Source: a virus | Strand: one strand, 5' to 3' | IMG/VR virus record: IMGVR_UViG_3300021077_000115 | Span: 366,064 to 391,957 of that record | Length of the DNA stretch: 25,894 nt | In this document: positions 1,950 to 22,226 of the stretch, one piece after another | Layout of the letters: each line of letters begins with the position of its first letter | Position numbering within the stretch: position 1 is the first letter of the stretch | Notes under the pieces: generated by a model | Told to the model about the DNA's origin: nothing | Databases searched by the model: none | What the model saw: the letters and a program-made list of their open reading frames with translations, nothing else | Translations under genes and position numbers: made by a program

Positions 1950-3818
1950 TTATCCACGGCCACCAAACATCTTAGGAATATACCCAACAACTGCCTGGAT
2001 TGGACGTGCGCTTGTAGCTAGTTCGTATTTCATATATTGTGGATTGCTAATCGTGAATCCCTGGGTTACATCGAATTTCCAAGCCAAATAGGCATTCAAT
2101 AGCGCCATCAAACCGTCGTTAGCTACAGACCCTTTTACATACTTTTTTAAAGGCTCCCCTGACTTATCCCTAGTAACTTTAATCTCCATACTTGCGCAAT
2201 GTTCGATTAGCCATTCGATTCGGTCTAAGCTCCCACCTGGAAACTTGATACGGCCTTCTTTCAAAAGCCCAAGCAACTCTGAAATATAATAGTCTTTTTC
2301 GAATACAACTGTCTTTGGCCACTCATCATTTGAATATTTTATGCGTCCATTTACCTTATGCGAAGAACGAGATGCCAAAAACTTCTCATCATAAATTAGT
2401 TGCAATTTATGTGTCAAGTCATATGCATCACCAATGTCGCCGATGGATAATGTCATATTGTAGCGCCTAAACATTTCCTCAACTGTATTCATCTTCGTCT
2501 CTGGATCTGGTCTAAGCAACCGAGTGGCAAATTCAACATTGAATACATTTCCAGAGGCAGTTAAAATAACAGCACAACTATAGGAACCTTTACGTCCTCG
2601 CCCAGACATCTGTTCAAGCGCTCCTCTCTGGCCCCAGTCGAATCCTGCATAAACTCGACGACCTTCATCAGGATAAATATACTTGACCATCTTGCGACCC
2701 TTATCGATGCACTTATCGCGAATCTCTTGGGACGTAATTGTTCCGCCTTCGCCGTCGTAGAATTCACCAAGAACTTCGTTCATGTAAACGCGCTCGGTAT
2801 TAATTGGACTACGCTCTGGCTTTGCTTTCTCTATGGTCTCTTTGGTAAAATTTGGAATGTATAATTGATTGATGTGATAGCCAACAAAATCACACTTCTC
2901 AGGATCGTTGATTGGAATCCATCGGCCACGTTCCTGAGCTTCAAGCTTATCTTGTTCGCAATGACACTCAGTACATCGAACAATCAAGCCATAGAGCCAT
3001 ACCTCTTCCCAGTTCACACCAGGATGATATAGAGGAAAATATTTTCCACATCTTTCACAGCGCAAATGAAAGTAATTCTGTGAAGAATTCTGCCACATAT
3101 TCCAATAAGATCCGCCTTTGGTCTTGGGCGTTCCATAATATACTTGAACACCTTCACCAGCCATTCCGTATCTGGATTGCGCTAGAATCTTTGTAGCTGC
3201 ACCGATAGCAGCGTCGGACATGTCTTGTACCTCATCAAAGAAAGTACCATCACAAGTACGACCACGAATTCTATCGCCGTCGATACCGGTCGATTCAATC
3301 CAAATCTGATTTCCAAACATGAATTTTTTGAAATGCATGTTGTTATTAGTCGGACTAGACAAATCCAAACGCGCTTCCATGTATGACTTCAGAATGCCAT
3401 TGCTCTTCATCATTCCTGGAACTGGAGCCGCGTGACCAATGATTGGATCAAGTTTATCTTTTGTATACGCTGCCGCTAAAGATAACGTCGGGAACAAATG
3501 CATCATGCGCATTGGTGGACGTTCGTTAGTACCAAACAATCCACAGGCACTGAAGTAACACTCAAGAGCTGCCGCCATCGTCGTCGCCCCCACCTGCCGT
3601 CCTTTCACAAGAACAATGGGTTTTGAGTTTGGCTCAATAGCTTTGAGTGCTATGTATCTGTAAATGTCGGCGAATGGCTTATAGCCAGTACCTTCTAATT
3701 GTAACGGCTTACCATCAACAGTTAAATATTTTGCACAAAAATATACCGGATCAAGACTTAGAATTCCGTCACGAAGTTTATAAAATAACTCATTAAATCC
3801 TATTTCTGCAGATTTCAT
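1950..3818 (-). CDS. terL: Terminase large subunit (ATPase + nuclease), 622 aa
   Basis: It has a Walker A-like motif (VLVKGRQVGATTM) and a Walker B/catalytic motif (DGTFFDEVQD). The length of ~620 aa and the position directly upstream of the portal candidate fit. This is the standard TerL architecture. Confidence 0.85.
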   Translation of the reverse strand: MKSAEIGFNELFYKLRDGILSLDPVYFCAKYLTVDGKPLQLEGTGYKPFADIYRYIALKAIEPNSKPIVLVKGRQVGATTMAAALECYFSACGLFGTNERPPMRMMHLFPTLSLAAAYTKDKLDPIIGHAAPVPGMMKSNGILKSYMEARLDLSSPTNNNMHFKKFMFGNQIWIESTGIDGDRIRGRTCDGTFFDEVQDMSDAAIGAATKILAQSRYGMAGEGVQVYYGTPKTKGGSYWNMWQNSSQNYFHLRCERCGKYFPLYHPGVNWEEVWLYGLIVRCTECHCEQDKLEAQERGRWIPINDPEKCDFVGYHINQLYIPNFTKETIEKAKPERSPINTERVYMNEVLGEFYDGEGGTITSQEIRDKCIDKGRKMVKYIYPDEGRRVYAGFDWGQRGALEQMSGRGRKGSYSCAVILTASGNVFNVEFATRLLRPDPETKMNTVEEMFRRYNMTLSIGDIGDAYDLTHKLQLIYDEKFLASRSSHKVNGRIKYSNDEWPKTVVFEKDYYISELLGLLKEGRIKFPGGSLDRIEWLIEHCASMEIKVTRDKSGEPLKKYVKGSVANDGLMALLNAYLAWKFDVTQGFTISNPQYMKYELATSARPIQAVVGYIPKMFGGRG

Positions 3819-3875
3819 TTATACCTATCTATATAACACATATATGAAAATACAGATAAATGTATAGAATTACAA

Positions 3876-4754: not shown

Positions 4755-4761
4755 ATTTATC

Positions 4762-4795
4762 CTCTGTATTATGCAGCAAGCTGTATTATAGAATT
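4762..4795 (-). promoter_or_regulatory. Direct repeat of ATAATACAG (minus-strand sense) with a perfect TATAAT box, ~10–35 nt upstream of the acidic-protein gene
   Basis: The minus-strand reading is tcTATAATACAGcttgctgcATAATACAGaggataaatATG. The same 10-mer ATAATACAGC occurs in the 16404..16552 boundary region. Confidence 0.3.
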
Positions 4796-4838
4796 ATTTT
4801 TGTATTGTTTAGATAATATTCGGATTTATCGCGCATCA

Positions 4839-5744
4839 TTATCCTCGGTATTGCGCACTCCAATCAAACCCATCATTTCTATAAGTTTCAATGTGACTGC
4901 CAACAGCATATCCTCTATCCTGAGACATAGGAAATCCCATATCTGCTAATAACTGGGAAAGTTCAGCCTGCTCCCTTTTATCAAGAGTATATTCTTCTAC
5001 TTGACGCTTGAATATATCCTCAATATCATGTCCGGCCGATACCATTCCATTGATACAAACACGCGCAATTCTTGAAATCAACAATGGAACTGTAATCGTA
5101 ATACCAGTGATATTTGTGGCCTTTTGAGCCTCTTTGACAATGCCAGAATCTTCTGACCAGCTCTTGCTCTTCTTCTTCTTGTGACGCTTGTACTTATCAA
5201 CCTTCACACTCTCTAGACGGTCTAGTAGGCGCTCAAGTCCATTTTCAATTTGCTCACGAGCCCGCTCGGCCTGTGCGGCATCAATCTCATCTTTGAAATC
5301 GGTACGCATAGCTTTTGATATCTCACGATCCAACGCTTCAAAATAAGCAATTGCCTTTTCCAATCCGGTAGTATCATAACCAGAATGTGGGGGAACGCCA
5401 TTGAACATTTTGCTAAGCCAAGGAAGGAAGCTAGAGTGTTCCCATTTCCATGCATCAGAATCTGCAGGATCGGCCTCTACCTCAATATCTTCGTCATCAC
5501 CGTCATTCTCTACAATAATATCCTGTGCATCAGGAGCACCCGGAATCTTGTCAAGATTGAAAATGACTTCATGAGGATCTTTTGAGACCTCAATATTATC
5601 ACCTATTTCAAAGGACGGAAAATGATGCCCGCCTCCCATCAAAGGGACAATAACTTCTCCTAAATCTTGTGCGCGTTTTTCTACCATTACAACCTCAATG
5701 TTGCTAACAAACCTATTCTGAATTATTCGTATAAATTCTTCCAT
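4839..5744 (-). CDS. Hypothetical protein (301 aa)
   Basis: This is a long ORF in the same orientation as its neighbours. It is preceded by a 213-bp AT-rich intergenic region. I saw no recognisable motif. Confidence 0.55.
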   Translation of the reverse strand: MEEFIRIIQNRFVSNIEVVMVEKRAQDLGEVIVPLMGGGHHFPSFEIGDNIEVSKDPHEVIFNLDKIPGAPDAQDIIVENDGDDEDIEVEADPADSDAWKWEHSSFLPWLSKMFNGVPPHSGYDTTGLEKAIAYFEALDREISKAMRTDFKDEIDAAQAERAREQIENGLERLLDRLESVKVDKYKRHKKKKSKSWSEDSGIVKEAQKATNITGITITVPLLISRIARVCINGMVSAGHDIEDIFKRQVEEYTLDKREQAELSQLLADMGFPMSQDRGYAVGSHIETYRNDGFDWSAQYRG

Positions 5745-5957: not shown

Positions 5958-6443
5958 TCATATTTTCCTTATAATATCAATTATATAACTACCTTGAAGG
6001 CTATAAGTTCCAAAGTATAAGTTTCTCGTCACATTGTAGTCGCTGAGGTAACCGGCGGGATAAGTAGTCAGACCTGTGATGATACCATTGAACATCTTGG
6101 AATAATATGGTGATGGCATCAGTGGTTGAGCCGGACCTTGCCCAGGAGCCGTATCATCGTGATTACATTCTACCGCATCATTATGTTCTAGAATATGCCC
6201 CGCATACTTACAAGGAGACGGTTCATCTGAGCTTCGTAATAAATTCCAAGCAAGAAGCTTAGCATTAGCGGCAGCTAACATTTCCTTTTCATCCTCGGAT
6301 GCTTCCTTGCCCATAACTCCAAACGGTGCCATTTGGTCTACATAATCGCCGGCATTTTTGCAGGCAAATGGTATTGGAAGACCGAATGGGCATTTGTTCT
6401 CTTCATTCTTACGAACTTCTGCTATTTTTAAATGACGCTTCAT
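5958..6443 (-). CDS. Hypothetical Cys/His-containing protein (~160 aa from internal ATG), translationally coupled (ATGA) to the upstream nucleotidyltransferase
   Basis: The ATG at 6443..6441 overlaps the TGA stop (6442..6440) of the nucleotidyltransferase ORF. The six-frame ORF runs further upstream (to 6497), but its first Met in context is the ATGA one. It contains CPFGLPIPFACKNAG and CKYAGHILEHNDAVECNHDD. Confidence 0.5.
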   Translation of the reverse strand: MKRHLKIAEVRKNEENKCPFGLPIPFACKNAGDYVDQMAPFGVMGKEASEDEKEMLAAANAKLLAWNLLRSSDEPSPCKYAGHILEHNDAVECNHDDTAPGQGPAQPLMPSPYYSKMFNGIITGLTTYPAGYLSDYNVTRNLYFGTYSLQGSYIIDIIRKI

Positions 6444-7183
6444 AATGCCACCGGTTGTTGCTGTGCAAGAATTCTTGGAATACCAACAACGTTCCAAAGT
6501 TTCATAGTCGAAAGTAACTGCATAGTTTTCTTGACATCAGCCCTTGTGGCATCGGCCAACTTTCTCCTAGAAAATCCAACAGATACTTCTTCCTTAATCT
6601 TGTCGTGGTGATTCAAAACCCACATGATAATGTCTCTTTCAACTGTAAATCCAAGCTTTGCTGCAAGGTAAATCGCTCGCACCACACGCTTCGGGTCATC
6701 TCTAAGAGTGATACGTGGTGGCAATGGGGTCCGGATAATCTTCTTCTTTATATCATCTATAGCCAGACCTGTCGGATCTACAATCTTGCGCAATGCCAAT
6801 GGGATGATAAGAGTGTTACAGGTGAAGTCACGACTGAATAATTCCAACAGCATGCTAGAAGGATCTTTGATGCCGGCCTTTTCTAAAAAGTATGCGGCAT
6901 CTGGAGAATTAAAGTTTGAAGAGAAGTCGAATTTGATTTTGTTTATATACAGCTGATAATGGCCATCAGGAAAGCGTATTGGGTTGACTTTGAATTGTTG
7001 TGCTGTCAACTCTGCTAACTGATGAATGGATTCGTCCCCAGAAGTAATATCAACATCCTCTACTTTATTGATACGATTAAGGATTTTATCACGCGGAAGT
7101 CCGCCGACAATATATGGCTCAGACAAGCCATTGTCTTTAGCAAGGCGCTTCACGTCCAGTAATACATCCCTAACTCCGGCCAT
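6440..7183 (-). CDS. Class-II tRNA nucleotidyltransferase / poly(A) polymerase family head+neck domain (247 aa), lacking body/tail domains
   Basis: The head domain shows YIVGGLPRDKILNRINKVEDVDITS (the GGxxRD ... DxD nucleotidyltransferase motif) and SRDFTCNTL (the conserved RRDFTINAL motif of the PolyA_pol head domain). DDPKRVVRAIYLAAKLGFTV matches the neck motif DPLRILRAlRFaakLgF. Confidence 0.85.
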   Translation of the reverse strand: MAGVRDVLLDVKRLAKDNGLSEPYIVGGLPRDKILNRINKVEDVDITSGDESIHQLAELTAQQFKVNPIRFPDGHYQLYINKIKFDFSSNFNSPDAAYFLEKAGIKDPSSMLLELFSRDFTCNTLIIPLALRKIVDPTGLAIDDIKKKIIRTPLPPRITLRDDPKRVVRAIYLAAKLGFTVERDIIMWVLNHHDKIKEEVSVGFSRRKLADATRADVKKTMQLLSTMKLWNVVGIPRILAQQQPVAL

Positions 7184-7192
7184 TCTTCTCCT

Positions 7193-9955: not shown

Positions 9956-12900
9956 TTACTTTTTCGAAACAAATGGAGACAATCCCTTAATTGGATTGAA
10001 TTCTTTTGATTCTCCAGGCTGACGTGAGGTACCAGGAGTCCACCTTGGAGTGCTGATACGACTACGCGCTGGAATATTTCGTACTCTTACTGGCCCACCC
10101 TCACCCTTTTGAAGATCTTCAAGTGAAGGTGAATCGCCAGACATTCCAGGGTCTCGTACGCCCTTTCCTTTACGTGGCTTCAAAATCGAAGCGAACGTCA
10201 CCGGTTCTTCTCGCCTTGGGTACTTGCCTCTTTGTTCTCTGTCCTTGCCCAAACCACCAATGGCAATTTGATATGGAGGATAGAAACCTTGCTCCATCAT
10301 CCATTTGTTTTGTTCTTGTTGGCTAGCCTCGGTATCTTCCTTATCAGATTGTAGATTATTATAAGCATATTCTATAACATCCCAAGGAAGGTTAGCATCA
10401 GGGAATCGCTCTTCAAGTTGCTGCTTTGCATCACTGAATGGCATCTTGCTGAAAGCTAGAGCTGTAACAGTATCACGAATCTTCTGTCCGCTCTGACTAA
10501 CATACTTTCTGATCCTATCTACAATTTGATAGTCGATTCCCATTGAGTCAGCAATCTCTTCCAATTTCTTCTTGGGAACTCCTTTGACTGCTAATGGAAG
10601 TATCTTACTCTTGATGCCAATAGGAATATCAGCTAGATTATCCTTATTAGATCCAACAATCTTATTCCATTCATCCGGCTTGTCTCTCCATTGAGTTGAG
10701 AATTGTTTCTGAGCCTCAACGAATGCTTGCTGATATTCTTCTGGATCTGAGAATAATGTCTTCAGCCCATGATAGTTTGGAAGAATGTTACCAGAGACTT
10801 TCTTGTCTAGATTTCGAAGAAGCTGTCTTGTTGTTTGATAACCAAACACTGGTTCGTCTGGTGAGTTGAATCCCTTAGAGACCATTTCATCAGCTTGCGC
10901 CTTTTTCTCAGCGTCGCCGTAGCCTTCAAAGTGATTCTTGGCCGCTACAAAAGCATCCCAATATTCTTCTGGATCTTGCCAAAATTGAACAAGCTTCTTT
11001 CCATCTGGCCCAATTGGTTGCTTCTTAAAGAATGGAGCTTTGGCTCGCTCCTCTCCCATAATATTTCTCAAGTCAATATTTACCTGATTGAAGGTAATAT
11101 TATCGTCCTCCCCAGGCTCAATCATCGGTTTGAACCCAGCTTCGCCCAATACTTTATTGACGCTTCTTCTAATGATTCTTCCCTTTATATCGGTTCGATA
11201 GGCGTTGATTTCCTGAGTCTTCTGTGGTCCAACTCGAAGAAAACGAGATGCCTTGAGATCGTTCAGAGATGGAACGGTAAAGAATTCTGTGCTCTTATCG
11301 CTATATGTATTCTTAAGATATTCAGCAATCGCTGTAGGGTCCTTAAGCTTAGGATCTCTATTTTTCTTGGCAAGATAAGTATTGACTGCCCTTGGAATAT
11401 CTCCATGCTTCAACATATCTGCGATATGACGATCTTTACTTTCCTCAACCAAATATTCTGATACGGCTTTAGAAGATTCTCCACGACCAAGCATATCCAT
11501 AACTTCGCCACGAATATCATCTGGTAATGAAGTTACCGACTCAGGGTCTTTGTCAACATTATATACAAAGTTCCTGAGCGCTTCTTCTAGCTTATCATTA
11601 TCTGATTTGATCTTGCTTTCAATCTTATTCTCAAGCTCCTTAGCTTGGACCTCATTGATAGTTATTCCCCAATGCTTTTGATAATCTCCCCATCTTAGGT
11701 ACTTGTACTTTTGAGAATTGCTCGCAGGTTTTTCTGCCGAAAGCTCAGGCTTCTCTTCTGGTATGGTCTTACCAATTTCTAAATGTTCTTTGGAGGGCGG
11801 CGGTACCTGACGTTCTATTGGAATTTCCTTTTCTTTTACCTTTGGATTCCATGGGCCATATTTAATCTTTCGCATTTCATCTAGAATGTTCTCGAATATT
11901 TCATCATTGGTAGGCGTTGGCTCACCAGATGCATTCCTATCTACAATTCTTTCTGTCATCGTATAGAACATCTTCGAAGCTTTTGTATCTTCATCGGAAA
12001 CCCATCTCTTCTTACTTTTCTCGAATTGATAGATTTCGGATATGATTTTCTTAGGCTCTCCCTCAGCGAAAAATGCTTTAGCCTCTTCTTCTGCCGCTTG
12101 ATACTCTGGACTATTCTCGTCGTATTCCCCTTCATCTGCTTTTGGAATTGGAACAATAGCTGGTCTCTTTTTTTCTGTTCGAGCAGCTGGGGCCTCTGGT
12201 GCTACCTGCTCTTGCAAAGCGCTGCCGAACTCGGCATAAGCCCAATCTCTAACTAAATTCGCAAACTCAGAAAACATTTCTGCATTCATTTCTTTGCGAA
12301 ACTTCTGAACTTCATAATTAGCTGCTGCGTCAACAAGATCCTTTCCGTGAAGACTGAGCTTGAATCTGTGATATTCTTTCGGGTCTACCAAACCAGCCTT
12401 AAGTTTTCCAATAACATATTGAGCAAGATCTGGAAGCTTTTCGGATGTTATTTTATGCTTTGTCGTTGCCCTCTCACCTTCAAAAGGATCCAAGATCTGA
12501 ACAGGGGCTGTGGCAGGTAAAGGCGCTTCTAGCGCAGATGGAATTTCATTTGGTTCTAATTTTCCGCCCAAATCCAATACGGGAGCTGGAACTGCAGCTT
12601 CCTTTAAGATTCTGGAAAGCAAATTTAAACTCTTGTTATCATCTGAACTATATTGATCAGCAATCTTCTGCAACGTATCTTTATTGACGCCAAAGCTGGC
12701 CATCACTTTGATATGCTTATCAATCAGGTCAGTCCATCCCAAATCACGTAGATGCGGGAACAATGATTCGGCAACCTTGACTTCATCGGTTGGCTTTTCG
12801 AATTGGCTATTGAATCCAGATGTCAATACCGACTTTATCTGTTGATCTTGTAAGCCCTCAGCTTTTGCCTTGGCGATTGCAGATTTCAACAAATGTGGAG

Positions 12901-14227
12901 CTATTTCTTGAACAGCATTGATCACCAGAGCCATAAGACTTTGGTGTGCAGTGGCCGTATCAGCATATTCAATCTCATCTTTATATCGTGGCCGTTCCAT
13001 ACTCGGAATAACGGCTGGAGGGGGCGCTGATGGGGGTATTGTTGCAACTCCAAAATCAGGCTTATTCCCAATAAACTCCGCATTTAATAGAGCTAGATGA
13101 TTTTGGTGCATACCAATATCTTCCAAAGATTTAAGCGTATCATCCATCATCCTTATCCACTGAGTGGAATTCTTAGGATCTGCCTTTACTATTTCTGATA
13201 AAGGCTGAAGAACGCTCTTGGCATTGTAATATTGGTCCTCGCTTTCTCTCTTTGATAGTGTTCTATTTATCTTACTCTTGAGCGGAACTCTTTTTTTTTT
13301 ATCAGATTCGTCATCAGCTAGTGTTTTAAGTCCGGCATCAGAGATATCCGAGGCAAGTATAATCGCCACTTGGGATGTTGATAACCCAGCATCCATAGCA
13401 TTATCAATGGCCCGGTCTAACAAACCAGGAGCATGATCACGAATTGCCTTCAAAGCAGTTGCTATCTTGACAATAATCTGTTTATCGCTGGAAGCATAGC
13501 GGCCCATCAAAGATTCTCTTGTCTCGAATAGTGACATGCCCTGATCGCGAATATCTCCAAGGTCATGAGTCTGATTCTCCACAGACCCGCCTGGAACTTC
13601 ATTACCCTTCTGGGTCTTGTAGCCAGCTTTGTAGTCATAAATAATACCAGTGACAATGTCTTGATAGACATGATCAGTGATACGTGTCATCTGTCCACCT
13701 GGACGATCCGGTGGATACCGAGTCTGAAGAGGAGCCTCCATCGGAACATAGCGTTTAACCTGTTGTTCAACTGCCTTGGCCTGAGCCTGGGCATTCTCCA
13801 TTGTTGAAAGACGCTTACGCGGTTCATCGTAGCATTCTTCGCCGGTAGTCTTACGACGCTCAGTTCGTAATCGATTTATTTCATCTTCAGTGACTTTACG
13901 AGCAGCAGCCACTGCATTCTTTGGAGCGGCAATCGAAAGTAACAACTCATCAAGCACAGATGCCTGCTTCTTGAGCAAAGGATCTTCGCTTTCATCAAAT
14001 GCAGAAGCTAGAGCGGCAATCTCATCCAATTGTTGAGGTGTAATTTCGAATGACGCATGGTTGTCCATATCATCAGCAACACCCTCTAGAAGAGTAGATG
14101 CGGCGGCAATTGCCGTAGCTACTTTCTGAAATACATCAGGGTTCTTCTTGGATGCGCTAACCAACAGATCATCGCTGCTCTTCTCTAGCTTGCGGGCTAG
14201 AACTCTTAAGTCCATTGAAATTGCCAT
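9956..14227 (-). CDS. Giant hypothetical protein (1423 aa); possibly a virion internal / ejected or structural protein
   Basis: It is an uninterrupted 4.27-kb ORF with no recognisable catalytic motif. It has internal repeats (QDPEEYWDAFVAAK / SDPEEYQQAFVEAQ) and a basic C-terminal tail. The structural guess rests only on its size and its position in the operon leading to terminase/portal. Confidence 0.65.
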   Translation of the reverse strand: MAISMDLRVLARKLEKSSDDLLVSASKKNPDVFQKVATAIAAASTLLEGVADDMDNHASFEITPQQLDEIAALASAFDESEDPLLKKQASVLDELLLSIAAPKNAVAAARKVTEDEINRLRTERRKTTGEECYDEPRKRLSTMENAQAQAKAVEQQVKRYVPMEAPLQTRYPPDRPGGQMTRITDHVYQDIVTGIIYDYKAGYKTQKGNEVPGGSVENQTHDLGDIRDQGMSLFETRESLMGRYASSDKQIIVKIATALKAIRDHAPGLLDRAIDNAMDAGLSTSQVAIILASDISDAGLKTLADDESDKKKRVPLKSKINRTLSKRESEDQYYNAKSVLQPLSEIVKADPKNSTQWIRMMDDTLKSLEDIGMHQNHLALLNAEFIGNKPDFGVATIPPSAPPPAVIPSMERPRYKDEIEYADTATAHQSLMALVINAVQEIAPHLLKSAIAKAKAEGLQDQQIKSVLTSGFNSQFEKPTDEVKVAESLFPHLRDLGWTDLIDKHIKVMASFGVNKDTLQKIADQYSSDDNKSLNLLSRILKEAAVPAPVLDLGGKLEPNEIPSALEAPLPATAPVQILDPFEGERATTKHKITSEKLPDLAQYVIGKLKAGLVDPKEYHRFKLSLHGKDLVDAAANYEVQKFRKEMNAEMFSEFANLVRDWAYAEFGSALQEQVAPEAPAARTEKKRPAIVPIPKADEGEYDENSPEYQAAEEEAKAFFAEGEPKKIISEIYQFEKSKKRWVSDEDTKASKMFYTMTERIVDRNASGEPTPTNDEIFENILDEMRKIKYGPWNPKVKEKEIPIERQVPPPSKEHLEIGKTIPEEKPELSAEKPASNSQKYKYLRWGDYQKHWGITINEVQAKELENKIESKIKSDNDKLEEALRNFVYNVDKDPESVTSLPDDIRGEVMDMLGRGESSKAVSEYLVEESKDRHIADMLKHGDIPRAVNTYLAKKNRDPKLKDPTAIAEYLKNTYSDKSTEFFTVPSLNDLKASRFLRVGPQKTQEINAYRTDIKGRIIRRSVNKVLGEAGFKPMIEPGEDDNITFNQVNIDLRNIMGEERAKAPFFKKQPIGPDGKKLVQFWQDPEEYWDAFVAAKNHFEGYGDAEKKAQADEMVSKGFNSPDEPVFGYQTTRQLLRNLDKKVSGNILPNYHGLKTLFSDPEEYQQAFVEAQKQFSTQWRDKPDEWNKIVGSNKDNLADIPIGIKSKILPLAVKGVPKKKLEEIADSMGIDYQIVDRIRKYVSQSGQKIRDTVTALAFSKMPFSDAKQQLEERFPDANLPWDVIEYAYNNLQSDKEDTEASQQEQNKWMMEQGFYPPYQIAIGGLGKDREQRGKYPRREEPVTFASILKPRKGKGVRDPGMSGDSPSLEDLQKGEGGPVRVRNIPARSRISTPRWTPGTSRQPGESKEFNPIKGLSPFVSKK

Positions 14228-14229
14228 TA

Positions 14230-15756
14230 TTATGCTCCTTCTGGGAAGAATATCTTATTAGTCATAAACTGTGGTGTGTCACGTACCGGTTGCTTTGCCA
14301 CTTTGTGCAATGCAGCCATTTCTTCGGCAGGAGACTGGCCTGGTGCATAGATATTCGACATCATGTGTGCAATAGCCACTTTTTGTGCTTGTGGATCTAT
14401 TTCACCAAGAGTATTGATTGCTTCTTCAGCACGAATGTAGTTACCCTCTTTTACAGATTCTATTACGACATCCAAAAGCTCTGTTGGCTTCAAATCATAG
14501 CAAGGAGAAGCTGTAGCAAGAGCCCGCTTGTTTCCGCCAGAACCAGACCTGACGATTTGAGAAATAGCCTCTTTGGTAAATTCGGTTACGATTCCATCCG
14601 CAAATATAATCTGCGGTTGTCCAACACGGCCTTCAACAATTTCGACTGGAACCTTGAAACCAGTTCCAGTTCCAACTGCCACTGCGTAGAAAATCTTATC
14701 GCGCTCTACATCGACAACCTTTACCTGAACGCTCTTATATCCAAGCTCGGCAAATTTGCGAATGACCACCGCACGGCCAGCTTCGACAATTTTGTCACCA
14801 TGAACGAAGCGAGCAATTCCATCTGGCTTGCCAAGAGTCTCGGCAAACTTGGTCTCTGGAGTCTCTGGCATCTGTGGTAAAGCCACATCAGCTTTCGGAT
14901 CCACAAGCTCGGCATAGTAAATGGCATTCTCAAGCGATGGGGTAGAACCCTGTTCGGAAGCTACCTTGATAGCTGCCATCTCAACCTCATTCACTATAGT
15001 AGAGCTTCCACGCTTGATTTGCTCAAGAACATCGAGCAATTTGGCTCCATCAACTCGGAAACCTTTGCCGGCAACCTTGAGTACATGAGTTTCATATGCT
15101 TCTTTGTCGAACTCTTCAAATCCGTCTGGAGTGAAGAACAACTGGGGAAGTGTAGCTTTGCCTTCAACCAACTCGACCGGGATTAGAACATTGGCAGTTC
15201 CAATAGGCGTCTCGTGAACGGCCTGGCAAATGATAATGTCCTTACGACCAGCAAAGGTTTTAACTTCTTTTGGAAGGCATCCAATATTAATCAACTGAGC
15301 ATAAGCAGCACGCTGAGCCCGTTTAGCATCATCTGTTGAATAGATCCGCTCGGTTGGAGTTGCATCAAAAGCCCCAGCTAAGGCGTTAGCTAAGATAGGA
15401 TCTGAGAACCTTTGATAATCACGGTCAAGCGACATCCCTTCATTAGCTTCACGCACAAACGTATGCGGCTTTGGCTCGGCACGCTTGCCAAGTTCCTCGG
15501 TGAATACCTGGGATAGCTTGGAGTGGCTAGCTCCGAATCGTTCCACTATATTAGCAAGCTCGGCTCTGTTGATGAACATCTTATCAGAAGCCATCTTAGT
15601 CAGAACCTGAGAGGCATTAATGAGAGGAACATCAGTTGGGCGGGCTGCAGCTTCCCGACGAGCTTTGGCAGCAAGTACAGGGAGAGCGAATGTTTCATCG
15701 GCCTCAATTGCACTAGCGGCCTTTGTTATCAAAGATGTAATGTCTTGTAAATTCAT
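14230..15756 (-). CDS. Hypothetical protein (508 aa) with internal ~50-aa duplication
   Basis: The repeat VLIPVELVEGKATLPQLFFTPDGFEEFDKEAY recurs as FKVPVEIVEGRVGQPQIIFADGIVTEFTKEAI. An SD (AAAGAGGA) precedes the ATG at 15756. Confidence 0.6.
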   Translation of the reverse strand: MNLQDITSLITKAASAIEADETFALPVLAAKARREAAARPTDVPLINASQVLTKMASDKMFINRAELANIVERFGASHSKLSQVFTEELGKRAEPKPHTFVREANEGMSLDRDYQRFSDPILANALAGAFDATPTERIYSTDDAKRAQRAAYAQLINIGCLPKEVKTFAGRKDIIICQAVHETPIGTANVLIPVELVEGKATLPQLFFTPDGFEEFDKEAYETHVLKVAGKGFRVDGAKLLDVLEQIKRGSSTIVNEVEMAAIKVASEQGSTPSLENAIYYAELVDPKADVALPQMPETPETKFAETLGKPDGIARFVHGDKIVEAGRAVVIRKFAELGYKSVQVKVVDVERDKIFYAVAVGTGTGFKVPVEIVEGRVGQPQIIFADGIVTEFTKEAISQIVRSGSGGNKRALATASPCYDLKPTELLDVVIESVKEGNYIRAEEAINTLGEIDPQAQKVAIAHMMSNIYAPGQSPAEEMAALHKVAKQPVRDTPQFMTNKIFFPEGA

Positions 15757-16552: not shown

Positions 16553-16831
16553 ATGGAGACATTCTTAAGCATCCCTCTTGAAGCTATCACTACTTCAGGC
16601 AACAACGCTTTCCACTGGAAGGGTGTTGTTGGGGACGTTTTAATTACAATATCTGGCAAGAAGTTATCAAAAGATTCCTTCAATTATATTGTATATGTAG
16701 ATTTGTGCGGATTTCCTGAAAAGTGGTGGCCTGGCAACAGAATACAAATCGCAGAAGCTTCTGGAGAAAACCTCTTATTTCTAGAGACGGAAATAAGACG
16801 GCAGCTGAGGAGGCTGCAGATCAACCTCTAA
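16553..16831 (+). CDS. Questionable small ORF (92 aa) inside the intergenic boundary region
   Basis: This is the only + strand ORF not embedded in a minus-strand gene. It has no SD, contains the hairpins described below, and overlaps the probable minus-strand promoter region, so it is probably not coding. Confidence 0.2.
   Translation: METFLSIPLEAITTSGNNAFHWKGVVGDVLITISGKKLSKDSFNYIVYVDLCGFPEKWWPGNRIQIAEASGENLLFLETEIRRQLRRLQINL
16776..16819 (-). terminator. Pair of adjacent stem-loops immediately after the stop of the sigma-like gene (candidate terminator)
   Basis: Perfect 8-bp inverted repeat cttatttc-N8-gaaataag (16776..16799) and a 5-bp one gcagc-N7-gctgc (16803..16819). On the minus-strand transcript the first is followed by aggUUUUCUcc. 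The stems are AT-rich, so this is a weak call. Confidence 0.3.
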
Positions 16832-17265
16832 TTATACTGAGAATGAATCTCGGCAATTTGGGTAATGATATCCTGAATCTTTGGGTCTCTATCTGCCAAG
16901 CGGCGCAACTTCTTCTTGGCCCCTCCGTAAATCTTTCGGCCATTGCGGTAGTCACAATTTCCATTCACTGACTTTGTGATGGAGCTTTGATTGACATTGA
17001 GCTGCTTTGCAATCTCAATTTGGGTGTAACCCTTGCTCAAAAGTTCAATGACTTGGAATTGACGTCCAGTCAGATTCTCTTTGGCCAGCCTCCAAAATTC
17101 GCCCTTCAGCTGTTCCCTTAATACCAACAGCTGCTCTCTGTCTTCTGGATTATAGTTTTCTACCAAGCCTTGAGCTTCCGAAAACTCAGCCATCATTTCA
17201 TTAGAGTATGGTTGTTCAGCAAATAAATGTTGATATCCGTTCGATCTGTTTGTTTTCCTTCCCAT
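16828..17265 (-). CDS. Sigma-70 region-4-like HTH DNA-binding protein (putative phage transcription factor / sigma-like), 145 aa
   Basis: LTGRQFQVIELLSKGYTQIEIAKQLNVNQSSITKSV...AKKKLRRL fits the sigma-70 region-4 / LuxR-type HTH pattern (L..RE..V..L...G.t..EIA..LgvS...V......A..KLR). The annotated start overlaps the primase by 50 nt. The true start may be the internal MMAEF at ~17196. Confidence 0.55.
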   Translation of the reverse strand: MGRKTNRSNGYQHLFAEQPYSNEMMAEFSEAQGLVENYNPEDREQLLVLREQLKGEFWRLAKENLTGRQFQVIELLSKGYTQIEIAKQLNVNQSSITKSVNGNCDYRNGRKIYGGAKKKLRRLADRDPKIQDIITQIAEIHSQYN

Positions 17266-18070
17266 CTAATCTCCCGAAGCTCTTTAATGTATCTATAACA
17301 TGCCGAATCTCTTCTATATCTTTTGAGCCTCGAAAAAACTCATCAATATCCTTAAATCCACTAGGAGGACTTATCAGTTTAATATTTGCCACATCCTTAA
17401 ACTTTTCCCTAATCCTAAACTTTCCCTTCTTCCCGGCATCATCATTATCAAGCATAATGATTATATTGTTTGTATACCTATGAATCTGGAACATTTGATA
17501 TCTAGATAAATTAGCCCAACCAAATGCAACGGCATTTGTAATTCCATTTGCATGTAGTGAAATACAATCAAATTGTCCCTCTACACCTATAACACAGTCA
17601 TTAGCTATAATTGAATCACGGGCCTTATCTAAACCATAGACATACAGATCTTTTCGGCAGCCAGCATTGTAATTATACTTCTGCATCTCCCTTTCACGGC
17701 GTTCTTCTTCTGATATCAAACACCTACCAACTAAAGCAATTACCTCTCCGTGTACATTATAGAAAGGCATCACTAGATTATGATCTGCAAAATGTCCATG
17801 AGGAGCCGTTCCCCCTTCAAGATGCTTTGGATAATATAACTTAAGAGATTCTAAGTCATCCTTATCAATCATCGAAGTAAGATCACAAAGATGATCATCA
17901 ACCGGGAAGTATCCAAACTTCCATGCCATTTGATCGTCTTTATCGAGGCGTGAATTTAAGTAGCGTCTGGCTAGGCGTGCAGAGTCAGATGTCAGCAATA
18001 AATGCTGACATGCTCTAACTACCTTTTGTAGAATCTTTTGTCTCGCGTTATGTTGAATAAATGATCTCAT
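17216..18070 (-). CDS. dnaG: DnaG-type DNA primase catalytic core (TOPRIM), 284 aa, without an N-terminal zinc-binding domain
   Basis: ARRYLNSRLDKDDQMAWKFGYFP matches the DnaG YL..RGL....I..F.lGYAP signature. The TOPRIM motifs are VIGVEGQFDCISLHANGITNAVA (conserved E) and IIIMLDNDDAGKKG (DxD). Confidence 0.8.
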   Translation of the reverse strand: MRSFIQHNARQKILQKVVRACQHLLLTSDSARLARRYLNSRLDKDDQMAWKFGYFPVDDHLCDLTSMIDKDDLESLKLYYPKHLEGGTAPHGHFADHNLVMPFYNVHGEVIALVGRCLISEEERREREMQKYNYNAGCRKDLYVYGLDKARDSIIANDCVIGVEGQFDCISLHANGITNAVAFGWANLSRYQMFQIHRYTNNIIIMLDNDDAGKKGKFRIREKFKDVANIKLISPPSGFKDIDEFFRGSKDIEEIRHVIDTLKSFGRLDGKENKQIERISTFIC

Positions 18071-18423
18071 CCACCATCAGCTCTCCTCTGAGCCACTAGA
18101 TTTACTTTAATCATCTCTGCAAATGGTTTGGATAGCGAATCTAATTCTTTACCACAAAATGAACACACAAGGTTCTTGCCGTCCTTGCTTAGTTCTGGTG
18201 GGCCTTCTTTATTACAAGGCTTACACTTCACAGCCCATGGTAACTTCTTTTTCTCATTGCGTCTTACCTGATCATAAGATATCATTTGACGACGCATAAA
18301 AATAGAAATGCTATTTACTGGCTTTCCACATTCAGTACAATAAGCAATGAAGCTTGCCTTATCAACTACAGGCCTCATTTCTTTTCCACAGCCTTTATTA
18401 TCACAAAAACATCTATATTCCAT
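18067..18423 (-). CDS. Double zinc-ribbon protein (118 aa), ATGA-coupled to the primase core
   Basis: It has four CxxC pairs (CFCDNKGC...CTEC; CKPC...CSFC). Its stop TGA overlaps the primase ATG (18070..18067 reads ATGA). Confidence 0.55.
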   Translation of the reverse strand: MEYRCFCDNKGCGKEMRPVVDKASFIAYCTECGKPVNSISIFMRRQMISYDQVRRNEKKKLPWAVKCKPCNKEGPPELSKDGKNLVCSFCGKELDSLSKPFAEMIKVNLVAQRRADGG

Positions 18424-18430
18424 ATTTATC

Positions 18431-19429
18431 CTACTTCGGAGACGCTGGGATTATAACTGGCTTTTCCAAAACCGAAATCAAATCAGAAACATCTTCTGGG
18501 TACGTTACGTTTATCACAAACACATGTGCTCCATTGGGCGGCACACCAAACCCAGAAACTCTAACTCTGTCTCCATTCCTTATCTTTGGCTTGAACTCTA
18601 AAACCTTATCACCCCTAATGGTTCGAAGATTTTTCTTCGTTCCTTGGAGAGCCTCAAGTAAACTAAGCTCTACTGTAGATATAACATCACTCCCATCGAG
18701 TATTAGGCCATTCTCATTGGGTAGTACATTGATCATAACTACCAAGCTATCATATAGATCTTTGGTTCTATAGTTGCCTCTACCATTAAGGGTTAGGATC
18801 GTACCATTCTCAATACCAGCTGGAATTGGTATTGATATATCTTCTTTGATGCGTTTCTTAAAAGTACCATTGCATGATTGACATACGCCAGAAGTAGAAT
18901 AGCCAGTCCCCTTACATCCATTACATGGCAATTCACGATTGTCAGCAGGTTGAATAGCACCGCTTCCATATTTTCGTTTGCCAGTTCCATTACACTTGAT
19001 GCAAGTAGTTTTGATATTGGCATTATTACAATCAAAACATTTTACCAAACGAGAATAAGAAATATCCTTTCGGCCACCTACTATTGACATCTCAAATGGA
19101 ATATCAGCCTTCACAGCTATAGGCGGCCCTGGTATATTCGTGAATTTTTTATTGAACACCTCATCCATTTGGCGTCTAAGTTCTTCTGCCAAATGATCTG
19201 CTGTATTATAGAATGGAGATTTTAGATCATTGAATGCTGGAGGGCTTGTTCCAAACTTCTCTAGTAACTGAAAGGCCTCGTTAATTTTTTTGAACTTATC
19301 TTCAGCATCTGGAGATTTGTTTCTATCAGGGTGATACTCAATAGCCTTCTTCTTAAATGCCGCTTTGACATCAGTTCCTGATGCTCCAATAGGCAATCCA
19401 AGTAAGGCGCATGCGTCATGAGTGTTCAT
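18431..19429 (-). CDS. dnaJ: DnaJ/Hsp40-family co-chaperone homologue (J domain + CxxCxGxG zinc-finger domain + C-terminal substrate-binding domain), 332 aa
   Basis: The N-terminal J domain carries the invariant HPD (KKKAIEYHPDRNKSPDAEDKFKKINEAFQLL). The CR-type zinc-finger repeats are CFDCNN, CIKCNGTG, CNGCKGTG and CQSCNGTF. The CTD has the GTILTLNGRGN pattern. The start overlaps the ruvC stop as ATGA. Confidence 0.85.
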   Translation of the reverse strand: MNTHDACALLGLPIGASGTDVKAAFKKKAIEYHPDRNKSPDAEDKFKKINEAFQLLEKFGTSPPAFNDLKSPFYNTADHLAEELRRQMDEVFNKKFTNIPGPPIAVKADIPFEMSIVGGRKDISYSRLVKCFDCNNANIKTTCIKCNGTGKRKYGSGAIQPADNRELPCNGCKGTGYSTSGVCQSCNGTFKKRIKEDISIPIPAGIENGTILTLNGRGNYRTKDLYDSLVVMINVLPNENGLILDGSDVISTVELSLLEALQGTKKNLRTIRGDKVLEFKPKIRNGDRVRVSGFGVPPNGAHVFVINVTYPEDVSDLISVLEKPVIIPASPK

Positions 19430-20016
19430 TTGCTCTTAGTATCCTTGACAGCCTTTGGCCTCGACTTCTTCTTCGGAGTTGTTTGCAACTTCGCCCAAGC
19501 CAATGCTACGGCCATCGAATCAGCCACATCGTACGATTCTTCCATGACAACCTGCAGCTTTGTTCGTTTGTTGATTTTGTATAGCCATGGATAAGGGATA
19601 TTTAAATGTTGGGATACCAATTCTGGAATTTCTTCTTTCTTTGGTAATACTTTCGTCAACTTAATAGCATGTCGAATCTTTAGAACATTCAAAGCTTCTG
19701 GTGTAATTCCCAAATCTAAAATAGCCAATCGAAGAGTCATATTCAAAATTGCCAATGGAATAACAGTACTAGCAGAAGATGCGCCCTTCATAAACCTTAT
19801 ATAGTCTTCAATAACAAATTCTTGTACATTGTATTTACCAAAGAGATTTAATATATGAGCTCTTGCTTGAATTAGCATATCCAACAGCCCATTCGTTTTG
19901 TCCGGTTTGTAATATTCGCAATGAATAAGACTTGGGCTGTAATCATCTTCATAGTCAATTATTGAGATGCCGATAGTAGTTGTGCTAGCATCAAGGCCCA
20001 TAACTCTTCTAATCAT
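19426..20016 (-). CDS. ruvC: RuvC-family Holliday-junction resolvase, 196 aa
   Basis: The N-terminus VMGLDASTTTIGISI matches the RuvC i.GiDpG...G (first catalytic Asp). The C-terminus DVADSMAVALAWA matches RuvC ADAlAiAl.H. The size is typical of phage RuvC. Confidence 0.75.
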   Translation of the reverse strand: MIRRVMGLDASTTTIGISIIDYEDDYSPSLIHCEYYKPDKTNGLLDMLIQARAHILNLFGKYNVQEFVIEDYIRFMKGASSASTVIPLAILNMTLRLAILDLGITPEALNVLKIRHAIKLTKVLPKKEEIPELVSQHLNIPYPWLYKINKRTKLQVVMEESYDVADSMAVALAWAKLQTTPKKKSRPKAVKDTKSK

Positions 20017-20036: not shown

Positions 20037-20065
20037 GAAAAGGAGGACTTTTGATCCTCCTTTTC
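20037..20065 (-). terminator. Strong factor-independent terminator hairpin (11-bp stem, 7-nt loop), plausibly bidirectional
   Basis: gaaaaggagga-cttttga-tcctccttttc forms a perfect 11-bp stem. On the minus-strand transcript it is followed by UUUUUGAUAU, 70 nt after the SSB-like stop and just upstream of ruvC. On the + strand it is followed by aattctatttt. Confidence 0.6.
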
Positions 20066-20135: not shown

Positions 20136-20909
20136 TTATCCATTGGCTGCGGTTTCGGTTTCGTCATCTGAAGAATCCGCTGGGCGCTGGAACGAATAAT
20201 CGTCCTCAGCCGGCTCTTCAAGCTTCGATCCTTTTGCACTTTTCCCATCTTCCTTTGGAACCACAGTTCCGTCCCAACCGAGCGAACGAAGACGCTCAGC
20301 AACCTTCTCAGGCTTCGGGCAGATTAGCTGACGGCCAAGGCACTTCTCAATAATCTCATCACCACCGATTTCGGTAATGAGTTTGAGGTCACCTTCGGAC
20401 ATAGGCTCCGTATCCTCAGAAACAACGCTATAGTAACCTGTAGCTGTCTTGCTCTTCGGATCGAACTTGATCGAGATATCAAAATCACGAGGTGTGAGAT
20501 TCTTTCCCTTCTTGTTCTTGGATTCGAGAATATCCTCAATTGATTGTGCAGTCAATTGGCTCAAATCAAGCAACTTGAGTTGGTTGTCTGCGCGGTCAAT
20601 AGCCACGACCATGTAACGCTCACGGCCTGTCAAGCCAAGATACTTCTTGACCGGGCAATCTTCGCCATACGTTGGCCACGATGTGCGAACCTTATCACCA
20701 TATGAGCGCTTGCTGTCAGGGCCCTTCCAGCGAACCTGATAAAAGACTCCCATTCCAGAAACGATGCGTACGCTATTGAAGCCTGGAAGTAGCTTCATAT
20801 ACGGAAGACGTGGAAGGTCTTCGTCATCATATTTACGGTTTTGTTTTGGGAGCGTTCCCCAGGCTCGGATTCCAGTGGATGGCTTGTTTTCTGTATTTGA
20901 TTCAGTCAT
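20136..20909 (-). CDS. Hypothetical protein with acidic C-terminal tail; possible single-stranded DNA-binding protein (257 aa)
   Basis: It sits between the RecA-like and RuvC genes. The C-terminus EEPAEDDYSFQRPADSSDDETE resembles the acidic tails of phage SSBs (T4 gp32 and T7 gp2.5 types). I saw no diagnostic OB-fold motif, so this is an inference. Confidence 0.3.
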   Translation of the reverse strand: MTESNTENKPSTGIRAWGTLPKQNRKYDDEDLPRLPYMKLLPGFNSVRIVSGMGVFYQVRWKGPDSKRSYGDKVRTSWPTYGEDCPVKKYLGLTGRERYMVVAIDRADNQLKLLDLSQLTAQSIEDILESKNKKGKNLTPRDFDISIKFDPKSKTATGYYSVVSEDTEPMSEGDLKLITEIGGDEIIEKCLGRQLICPKPEKVAERLRSLGWDGTVVPKEDGKSAKGSKLEEPAEDDYSFQRPADSSDDETETAANG

Positions 20910-21225
20910 TTGTTTCTCCTTGCGGCGTTTTGTTGTATGTTATGTTCTCTATGCGAATTACTCTGTGCCACGGAATTTTGCGATTTATTGGCTTAATTTC
21001 CGTATTTTTGGCTGATGTTATTGTTGCATGAGGATCTTTGATTGCTTTTGCCGCTTGTGTTTTAGTAAGCTGAATGCCCCTAAATTCCAAAAATACATTG
21101 CATTCGTTTACATCTTGCGATCTATAGAGTGCGATGCCATCGGTCTCGTAGGGATCTTCTGCTACTATTATATATATCGGCTTAATCGTAGTTCTGTTAA
21201 CTATTGATGGTTGTTGAAAGGCCAT
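20902..21225 (-). CDS. Hypothetical small protein (107 aa) immediately downstream of the recombinase
   Basis: The ORF abuts the RecA-like stop and overlaps the next gene by 8 nt. It could be a recombination mediator by position only. Confidence 0.45.
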   Translation of the reverse strand: MAFQQPSIVNRTTIKPIYIIVAEDPYETDGIALYRSQDVNECNVFLEFRGIQLTKTQAAKAIKDPHATITSAKNTEIKPINRKIPWHRVIRIENITYNKTPQGETND

Positions 21226-22226
21226 TATTCGTCATCCTCTTCTATCCCATCGATATCAGGGACTTTATTCTTGATTTCGTTGGATAGGTCGATTCCAGAG
21301 GCTGATACGCAAAGATCCAGTTCTGCGATACAATCTTCCCCACCAAATAGGTGGTTCTTCTTGACCCTTGCCACAGTTGTAATTCCGTACTTTACTTTTT
21401 GCTTGTTCTTAGTTCGGATGAGCGTAGCCTTCCTCGACATTTCTAAAATAAGGGAGCTAAGATATTCCAGTTCAGCTCCGCCCTTCTGCTTAAATCCAAC
21501 AGAACCAATATTTGCGTAAACTTGGTTGATGCACAAAATAGCAATCGTATAGTTGCCATCTTCGTCTCTGAATTTCTCAATCAATTGATTGAACCTTCGA
21601 ATTGCCCAAGAAACTTCCTTGGCAGTAACGCCAGGTTGTTTACTATAGTCATCATTCTCTTCATCTTCAGCTGAGTTAATAGATGCACCAACAGAATCCC
21701 AAACAATGAGAATCTTAGTTTCTGGATCCATTTCCTTAGCTGCCTTGACGTAAGCAATTACCTGCTGAACACCCTCTAAAATATTACGACTAGGTGCCAC
21801 AGCAATTTGCGAAGGATCGCCGCCAATTCTTTCTCTGTATCGTACGCTATCGAACTTACCCTCAGCGTCCCAGAGTACAACCAAAGCCCCTTGGTTTTGT
21901 GCGGCCTTCATCGCCAACATGGCCGCTGTGCTTTTCCCACTATCTGGCCTGCCAGCAATTTGGAAAATGCGCCCATAAGCAATTCCCAGCAATCCAGTGA
22001 GCGGCTTCCAGAATTTATCTATTTCCGGAGATGATATGTAGTCATCAGGATTTGTTGATAAGACAATCATATCGCCAGTTTTCATTCTGGCGGTTAGAGG
22101 TGCCTTCTTTTTATCAAATCTACCCTTAGCTTTTTCAACAAGGGCATTGATATCAAATCTTGGTTTTGATGTTGCTGTTAGTTCACTATCAAGTTTTTCA
22201 AGTATAGATTTTTTAGCACTAGCCAT
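21225..22226 (-). CDS. RecA-superfamily recombinase (RecA/UvsX/Sak4-like), 333 aa
   Basis: It has a Walker A motif (IAGRPDSGKSTAAM) and a Walker B motif (ILIVWDSVGAS), which matches RecA LIVVDSVAAL closely. The size is RecA-like. Confidence 0.7.
   Translation of the reverse strand: MASAKKSILEKLDSELTATSKPRFDINALVEKAKGRFDKKKAPLTARMKTGDMIVLSTNPDDYISSPEIDKFWKPLTGLLGIAYGRIFQIAGRPDSGKSTAAMLAMKAAQNQGALVVLWDAEGKFDSVRYRERIGGDPSQIAVAPSRNILEGVQQVIAYVKAAKEMDPETKILIVWDSVGASINSAEDEENDDYSKQPGVTAKEVSWAIRRFNQLIEKFRDEDGNYTIAILCINQVYANIGSVGFKQKGGAELEYLSSLILEMSRKATLIRTKNKQKVKYGITTVARVKKNHLFGGEDCIAELDLCVSASGIDLSNEIKNKVPDIDGIEEDDE

Follow-up and report, generated by a model that had tools for sequence, protein, structure and literature searches.

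The 25,894-nucleotide stretch of viral DNA analyzed here (positions 366,064 to 391,957 of IMG/VR record IMGVR_UViG_3300021077_000115, hereafter the window) carries a gene for a DnaJ-like protein within a block of replication and recombination genes (Table 1). All long open reading frames (ORFs) of the window, the DnaJ gene included, lie on the minus strand. Primase, RuvC-like, SSB-like, and RecA-like genes surround it, which agrees with the replication/recombination module in which a preliminary description, made from the letters and ORFs of this DNA, had located it. That description also had the gene coupled to ruvC by an ATGA, and the stop of the RuvC-like gene does overlap the DnaJ start by 4 nt (19426-19429). 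The further claim that DnaJ sits between primase and RuvC holds on one side: the gene adjoins the RuvC-like gene, but it does not directly abut the primase because the ORF of a small zinc-ribbon protein, here called ZnRib118, lies in between.

Table 1. Genes and features of the window; coordinates are window positions, and residue numbers are those of the DnaJ-like protein.
Feature	Coordinates	Strand	Details
DnaJ-like gene	18431..19429	minus	ATG-initiated ORF, 332 aa plus stop codon
J domain	19250..19429	minus	residues 1-60; helices I-III, without canonical helix IV
HPD tripeptide	19325..19333	minus	residues 33-35
Linker	19121..19249	minus	residues 61-103; without Gly/Phe richness
Predicted linker helix	19154..19192	minus	residues 80-92
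C-terminal beta-sandwich domains I and II	18497..19120	minus	residues 104-130 and 191-311, cysteine-rich region between
Cysteine-rich zinc-finger-like region	18860..19039	minus	residues 131-190; four CxxC motifs, inserted in C-terminal domain I
C-terminal tail	18434..18496	minus	residues 312-332; short helix 315-322
RuvC-like Holliday-junction resolvase	19426..20016	minus	phrog_159 E 9.5e-15
Terminator-like hairpin	20037..20065	minus	12-bp stem (5 G-C pairs) and T-run; consensus scan only
SSB-like	20136..20909	minus	phrog_1607 E 7.6e-8
orf107	20902..21225	minus	among upstream recombination genes; syntenic in clade loci
RecA/UvsX-like recombinase	21225..22226	minus	phrog_97 E 7.8e-36; PF00154 RecA E 1.4e-14
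ZnRib118, tandem zinc-ribbon protein	18067..18423	minus	118 aa; starts +7 nt after DnaJ; overlaps primase start by 4 nt
DnaG-type primase catalytic core (DNAG_N and Toprim)	17216..18070	minus	Toprim_2 E 5.5e-16; DNAG_N E 1.3e-4
GerE/LuxR-type helix-turn-helix protein	16828..17265	minus	145 aa; PF00196 E 2.6e-5; overlaps primase 3' end by 50 nt
orf508	14230..15756	minus	508 aa; no Pfam or PHROG match
orf1423	9956..14227	minus	1423 aa; no Pfam or PHROG match
Poly(A) polymerase/CCA-adding enzyme head domain protein	6440..7183	minus	247 aa; PF01743 E 1.4e-10; PHROG tRNA nucleotidyltransferase
Large terminase	1950..3818	minus	
Portal	10..1920	minus	

The protein is a clear homolog of DnaJ with a class-A-like body, from which two elements of the canonical N-terminal half are missing. 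The J-domain model PF00226 matches residues 9-57 with 53.9 bits against a gathering cut-off of 27.8 (E 1.9e-14), covering only profile positions 5-54 of 63, and the HPD tripeptide, whose place was confirmed on the reverse-complemented sequence, is positioned between predicted helices at residues 18-31 and 42-59. The DnaJ_C model PF01556 matches residues 105-311 with 68.9 bits against 26.6 (E 6.3e-19, profile positions 2-152 of 152). Both the J domain with its HPD and the DnaJ-type C-terminal domain had been named beforehand, and both are borne out above cut-off. The cysteine-rich region carries its motifs at residues 131 (CFDCNNAN), 143 (CIKCNGTG), 169 (CNGCKGTG), and 183 (CQSCNGTF), so that all of the four zinc repeats quoted in the preliminary description are present, but the corresponding model, PF00684, reaches only 21.7 bits over residues 135-189, under its cut-off of 32.7. 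The inner two motifs are canonical CxxCxGxG, and the outer two (motifs 1 and 4) are degenerate, with their glycines gone. Linke and coworkers are said to have found in 2003 that zinc center II, made up of motifs 2 and 3, is needed for DnaK-dependent action; these are the two fully canonical motifs of the phage protein.

The bacterial DnaJ equivalog model TIGR02349 aligns along profile positions 5-341 of 354 (E 3.3e-49) with 168.2 bits, which is under the curated cut-off of 377.2 and makes the protein a DnaJ homolog yet no equivalog. The "full architecture" attributed to it earlier must therefore be cut back: J, cysteine-rich, and C-terminal domains are all there, but the glycine/phenylalanine-rich (G/F) region and J-domain helix IV are not. 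Nor does it have the class C architecture of the phage J-protein Rki, the C-terminal part being a bona fide DnaJ_C domain.

Comparison with structures gives the same picture. By sequence (phmmer), the best PDB match is DnaJ from Streptococcus pneumoniae (6jzb, E 4.3e-28), in an alignment that spans the J domain and residues 101-317, cysteine-rich region included. An AlphaFold2 (AF2) model computed from 108 homologs has a mean predicted local distance difference test score (pLDDT) of 87.9, with values of 91-97 across residues 191-311, and adds a helix at residues 3-10 to the two that flank the HPD, giving J-domain helices I-III. Foldseek places Thermus DnaJ (4j80, 1.3e-18), 6jzb, human DNAJA2 (7zhs), and yeast Ydj1 (1nlt) at the top of its PDB matches to this model and also recovers the peptide-binding C-terminal domains of Hdj1, Sis1, and Ydj1. 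The short helix that the model places in the tail is a putative dimerization motif, and its position matches that of the dimerization motif of class A and class B J-proteins.

Helix IV is taken to be missing because the Pfam match stops at position 54 of 63, every PDB J-domain alignment ends at residue 57, and the helix IV signature [KRQ]xx[YF]D (KRxxYD type) is absent from the protein; the AF2 model predicts no helix at residues 60-79. Checked by profile and fold, the J domain proposed in the preliminary description is thus supported, but with helices I-III in place of a complete four-helix fold and with the cysteine-rich region below the cut-off of its model. The second missing element is the G/F region. 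Glycine and phenylalanine make up only 12% of the linker, as compared with 41% in E. coli DnaJ (this sequence and that of E. coli DnaK, both used as yardsticks, were entered by hand), in line with the earlier remark that a long G/F linker is lacking. A helix is predicted within the linker with moderate confidence (pLDDT ~75), and residues F73, E83, M88, and F92 are moderately conserved. As a matter of speculation, this helix could be a regulatory element resembling helix V of class B J-proteins (PMC10999819).

Relatives of the protein are numerous. A search of 5.8 billion proteins returned 230, of which the top ~110 are 277-363 aa in length, nearly all with HPD at residue 33, mostly with four CxxC motifs and with short G/F-poor linkers, and many of these are encoded on contigs of 100-450 kb. 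An exhaustive representative search yielded ~218 clusters at 50% identity with E<=1e-30, and in a scan of IMG/VR at least 472 stretches encode a DnaJ relative. The statement that DnaJ homologs are uncommon in phage genomes needs qualifying for this reason and because DnaJs of jumbo phages have been published (PMC7824862, PMC6102473, PMC12619734); it stands for isolates, where 35 of 50,697 records contain one, several of them through host contamination. Across the 108 homologs, at overall identities of 32-84%, residues H33, P34, D35, F46, and K47 (the HPD and KFK motifs) are invariant, and all 8 cysteines as well as L321 are at least 90% conserved. The alignment thus indicates that the HPD loop, which activates Hsp70, and the KFK motif of helix III are under strong purifying selection. 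According to reports of work by Kityk and coworkers from 2018, it is the HPD loop together with helices II and III that triggers ATP hydrolysis by Hsp70.

A few loci depart from this design. One (L256) has an extra ORF of 109 aa comprising a J domain only (2589-2915) directly upstream of its full-length DnaJ (2919-3995), and the nearly repeated N-terminal sequences suggest a tandem duplication of the J domain. Between them, loci L253 (3159-3989) and L257 (2336-3043, 3057-3989) offer one DnaJ without any cysteine motif, which is class-B-like, and one with two CxxC motifs only, in whose locus an HNH-endonuclease-like ORF is found between the resolvase and DnaJ genes.

The position of the gene is conserved along with its sequence. 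Relatives with 47%, 49%, and 32% identity lie on contigs of 453 kb, 209 kb, and 327 kb, respectively, in the same order of genes: a DnaE-type polymerase III alpha subunit, a RecA-like protein, a small ORF, an SSB-like protein, the resolvase, DnaJ, a zinc-ribbon protein of 112-118 aa, a Toprim primase, and a GerE-type helix-turn-helix protein. When phmmer was run with the proteins of the window against every ORF at 87 loci, 55 of these loci were found to share the block of RecA-like, SSB-like, resolvase, DnaJ, ZnRib118, primase, and GerE-type genes with orf163, orf508, and orf1423, which persists down to ~28% DnaJ identity and on contigs of up to 472,749 bp. Since the 87 loci had been ascertained through DnaJ itself, the ascertainment was repeated via ZnRib118, and 14 of 14 loci obtained in this way carry DnaJ immediately upstream. 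The 4-nt overlap of resolvase stop and DnaJ start recurs in 33 of the 50 loci having a RuvC-like gene.

The resolvase slot upstream of DnaJ is filled by a RuvC-like gene in most clade loci and by an Endonuclease VII-like gene (PF02945, a weak match) in a subclade, for instance at 7456-7992 in L003 and 7464-7973 in L005, and also in L004, L006, and L008-L010; a junction resolvase at a fixed position has apparently been swapped by non-orthologous replacement. In the 327-kb relative (L007, 1-3470), the DnaE-type polymerase III alpha subunit has intein-splicing and LAGLIDADG domain matches, and these suggest an intein inside the replicative polymerase of that phage.

To place these proteins among other phage DnaJs, we built a neighbor-joining tree of 86 sequences over 306 columns, including IMG/VR phage DnaJs, six of cellular type, and the hand-entered E. 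coli DnaJ. In this tree, 47 of the 48 distinct DnaJs from syntenic loci form one clade with a bootstrap of 95/100. Strict monophyly of all 48 receives only 11/100; the cause is a single outlier (L058), which also has a rearranged locus. Judged by tree and gene order together, the syntenic clade is vertically inherited. Its 55 members also differ from the 32 non-syntenic IMG/VR DnaJs in composition and surroundings. The non-syntenic proteins have a median length of 348 aa and a median linker G+F fraction of 0.28, and most carry the helix IV motif (30/32) and a DIF-like motif (21/32), whereas the clade has medians of 319 aa and 0.15 and rarely has either motif (2/55 and 10/55). A dnaK gene lies within 10 kb of 14 of the 32 non-syntenic DnaJs and of none of the 55 in the clade, a count that covers flanks of ±10 kb and used the hand-entered E. 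coli DnaK as query. In a wider Hsp70 scan of related loci with the same DnaK sequence, E. coli-specific peptides were matched by 36 unrelated contigs, and a degenerate DNA pattern for DLGGGTFD gave at least 120 matches, with no clade contig among the matches listed.

Individual phages illustrate the contrast. The DnaJ of Lak megaphage B5 is canonical and encoded directly downstream of dnaK, that of LR745206 is canonical as well, and that of Atu_ph07 is encoded beside ClpA. There are, then, at least two kinds of phage DnaJ: canonical, chaperone-linked copies on the one hand and a trimmed, monophyletic lineage in a replication operon on the other. In the unannotated record of Lak B5 itself (L246, MK250024.1), the DnaK homolog upstream of DnaJ (7956-9083) is in two ORFs (4345-4974 and 6443-7810) when read with the standard code, a split that probably stems from the alternative genetic code used by Lak phages or else from an insertion.

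The earlier reading of the gene as phage-encoded is well supported. Portal and large terminase genes share its window, its G+C content (GC) of 0.398 and GC at third codon positions (GC3) of 0.32 match the values of the adjacent genes (GC 0.374-0.384), and the identical DnaJ protein is encoded on several independent contigs from metagenomes, up to 391,957 bp in length. The nearest cellular-type DnaJs are only ~30% identical. It is the matching composition, the synteny preserved on dozens of independent viral contigs, and the monophyly of the clade that identify a phage rather than a host gene. The lineage itself appears to be unrepresented among deposited phages, since a megablast of the whole window against GenBank phages returned nothing and a tblastn search with its terminase (TerL) against the same set found at most ~25% identity, in Bacillus siphophages. 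Membership in the moraphages was rejected: these have PolB, T4-like morphogenesis genes, and genomes of at most 307 kb, and the lineage described here is of the DnaE type. One neighboring protein has been binned in a metagenome-assembled genome labeled "Clostridia bacterium", which is not evidence of a host. Near the packaging genes is an ORF of the CCA-adding type, and no tRNA gene was found in the window.

The genes on either side of DnaJ bear on how it may be expressed. The resolvase, identified through its PHROG match, also matches the RuvC model NF000711 at E 1.1e-5, far under the cut-off. ZnRib118 is more conserved than DnaJ, with 49 homologs at 55-92% identity, and adjoins DnaJ at all clade loci. 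Its two CxxC...CxxC zinc ribbons have 8 cysteines that are invariant or at least 90% conserved, and its AF2 model has a pLDDT of 81.8, but no Pfam or NCBIfam model matches it above threshold and a Foldseek search against the PDB gave no significant match, the best being Rpa12/Rpb9-like at E 0.026. The primase matches phrog_6444 and phrog_47 (DNA primase) and aligns only to positions 114-351 of 414 in TIGR01391 (dnaG); because the match begins at position 114, the protein lacks the zinc-binding domain. On these sequences, ZnRib118 may be the split-off zinc-binding subunit of the primase. The GerE-type protein, which is syntenic across the clade and has a weak sigma-factor-like PHROG match, could regulate phage transcription in connection with the replication operon. 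Further downstream, orf1423 and orf508 are conserved and syntenic at nearly all clade loci.

A hairpin in the 119-nt gap between the SSB-like and RuvC-like genes probably divides two transcription units, forming the upstream boundary of the one that runs from resolvase through DnaJ and zinc ribbon to primase. The overlaps and short gaps, combined with this hairpin, suggest that these four genes, and possibly the GerE-type gene, make up a single transcription unit.

Our leading explanation, which we put forward as tentative, is that the protein is a functional J-domain co-chaperone derived from a class A DnaJ and works as a specialized Hsp70 adaptor, co-expressed with the replication and recombination proteins of the phage and serving them via host DnaK. 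The conservation of locus and tree suggests, as part of the same explanation, that the gene has passed vertically down a lineage of huge (~200-470 kb) DnaE-type phages, fixed within their replication/recombination block. DnaJ would be transcribed and translationally coupled with the resolvase, the zinc-ribbon protein, and the primase. The protein, probably as a dimer, would then bind phage clients through its C-terminal domains and cysteine-rich region, the parts of J-proteins that are known to bind clients, and its invariant HPD loop would trigger ATP hydrolysis on an Hsp70, most likely host DnaK, locking it onto the client. The clients would most likely be replication or recombination proteins that need complex assembly or remodeling. 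Functional analogs can be found in the release of the lambda P-DnaB complex by host DnaJ, DnaK, and GrpE, and in SV40 large T antigen with its J domain. That both the G/F region and helix IV have been lost would mark a specialized rather than a generic adaptor. Dependence on Hsp70, the identity of the clients, dimerization, and the use of a host rather than a phage Hsp70 are what we infer from these features, and the conserved operon placement makes a role in replication, which the preliminary description had suggested beside one in virion assembly, more plausible.

Several observations weigh against this explanation. The gene may occupy its position simply because it was inserted there in an ancestor and is expressed early or at a middle stage; because the whole block is frozen in synteny, position may encode nothing but timing. 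Wall and coworkers reportedly showed in 1994 and 1995 that the G/F region of E. coli DnaJ is needed for substrate binding by DnaK and for lambda replication. Because the region is required in E. coli, a protein without it might couple poorly or differently to DnaK. The absence of helix IV may affect the stability of the J domain, and some clade members (L253, L257, P0060, and P0061) have a reduced cysteine-rich region or none, so that it appears dispensable in these. An Hsp70 of the phage itself might also be encoded elsewhere in the genome of ~392 kb, beyond the ±10 kb flanks checked for dnaK.

A narrower version of the replication hypothesis seems to us possible but unlikely. According to this, the protein would be a dedicated replisome or recombination J-protein, obligatory in the replication apparatus of a deep lineage of huge phages, which would have internalized the DnaJ requirement that lambda meets with a host protein. 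Its design without G/F region and helix IV would restrict Hsp70 recruitment to a few replication clients, candidates being the resolvase, a helicase loader, and the split primase together with the zinc-ribbon protein that partners it.

We hold it equally doubtful that the protein is a general proteostasis co-chaperone, boosting Hsp70 on behalf of several hundred phage proteins, with a gene position that reflects early or middle expression only. This is how DnaJs of jumbo phages are read in the literature (PMC7824862; PMC6102473; PMC12619734). It would fit the retention of generic client-binding C-terminal domains and, in most members, of the zinc centers, and the synteny of the whole neighborhood means that the linkage is not specific to DnaJ. 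The clade has, however, mostly lost the G/F region and DIF-type motifs, both of which are important for generic cycling of DnaK in E. coli DnaJ. Its gene is never beside other chaperone genes, unlike those of other phage DnaJs, and a tight translational link with the resolvase has been conserved.

A role in host takeover or counter-defense is improbable. The protein would in this case hijack or titrate host DnaK, or replace or act as a decoy for host DnaJ so that immune sensors stay silent. There is a precedent for the first in Rki of the T4-like phage RB43, an early class C J-protein that acts via host DnaK and stabilizes sigma-32 (PMC3486835), and a motive for the second in bNACHT25, whose sensing of phage requires host DnaJ (PMC12169576); the divergent linker and missing helix IV would be consistent with altered regulation. 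Against this, Rki shares only the J domain with a protein whose full set of DnaJ client-binding domains is strongly conserved, and genes for counter-defense are usually variable and found in accessory islands, whereas this DnaJ is a monophyletic core gene with a fixed place in the replication operon.

We give still less credence to an Hsp70-independent holdase or nucleic-acid-associated role with a vestigial J domain, modeled on CbpA, the DnaJ paralog that binds curved DNA. The protein is predicted to be basic (pI 8.9 for the whole, 9.5 for the C-terminal domains), its gene sits among DNA-handling genes, and helix IV is missing, but the invariance of HPD and KFK is hard to explain without an interaction with Hsp70. 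With the CbpA model NF007618 (cut-off 403 bits), the protein reaches no more than 60.2 bits, and the cysteine-rich region is present. That the gene belongs to a host and entered the window through mis-assembly or very recent transfer is refuted for practical purposes by its composition, its independent contigs, the gene order repeated on dozens of them, the ~30% identity to cellular DnaJs, and the monophyly of the clade, even though several "phage" DnaJ records in GenBank are host contamination (among them a Salmonella contig and some short fragments).

Until now, DnaJ genes of phages have passed for sporadic accessories that jumbo phages took from their hosts. The DnaJ derivative described here has the behavior of a core gene, as seen in its monophyly, its ~218 clusters, and its coupled position between resolvase and split primase in phages of 200-470 kb. 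Phage DnaJ as a kind is already known. We found no description of a syntenic, monophyletic DnaJ in the replication operon of DnaE-type huge phages, nor of a consistent loss of the G/F region and helix IV in a clade, in a literature whose coverage was incomplete, and the G/F-less replication-operon lineage is thus apparently the undescribed part. The family is also a natural experiment in J-protein design, in which the HPD, the C-terminal domains, and mostly the zinc centers are kept while the G/F region and helix IV are dispensed with, and it can inform the functions of both missing elements. The automatic label "molecular chaperone DnaJ" masks these differences.

In its overall plan, the protein resembles bacterial class A DnaJ (E. 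coli; 6jzb), with an N-terminal HPD-containing J domain, an inserted region of four CxxC motifs, two beta-sandwich domains, and a short C-terminal helix. Unlike these, it lacks the G/F region, DIF-type motif, and helix IV signature, is ~45 residues shorter, has degenerate zinc motifs 1 and 4, and is encoded in a replication operon and not a dnaK-dnaJ operon. DnaJ2 from Thermus thermophilus (4j80, 6psi, 9dvi) is its top structural match, with a J-domain E of ~1e-11 over residues 5-57, and is nearly its mirror image in what has been kept: a short protein (~280 aa) of class-B-like form without a cysteine-rich region, which retains its G/F segment, the reverse of the phage protein.

Among phage proteins, those of jumbo and huge phages (Atu_ph07 gp293, Lak, LR745206-type, and moraphages) share with it genomes of >200 kb, a predicted recruitment of Hsp70, and 22-28% identity. 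Those examined keep the G/F region and helix IV and sit with chaperone genes. Sporadic DnaJ homologs in jumbo phage group 2.2 have been predicted to recruit host Hsp70 (PMC7824862), gp293 of Atu_ph07 has been reported as a DnaJ homolog (PMC6102473), and for DnaJ and DnaK of moraphages there is evidence that they were recently acquired from Flavobacteriales (PMC12619734). The gene described here is, by contrast with such sporadic or recently acquired copies, a monophyletic, syntenic core gene. Like the phage protein, Rki has a J domain, and this is all they have in common, for the phage protein here keeps the DnaJ-type client-binding domains and Rki is not a generic co-chaperone. To our knowledge, Rki is the sole phage J-protein that has been studied experimentally.

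The closest parallels in function would be found in viral replication. Lambda uses the DnaJ of its host, and large T antigen of SV40 has a J domain fused to a helicase, with viral replication depending on Hsp70 action triggered by that domain (PMC3486835). Here, the J-protein is free-standing and phage-encoded, and the likeness to both systems lies in a J-protein gene embedded among replication genes. Should this DnaJ act in replication, the phage would encode its own version of the DnaJ step known from lambda, and the T-antigen J domain would have a counterpart in a bacterial virus.

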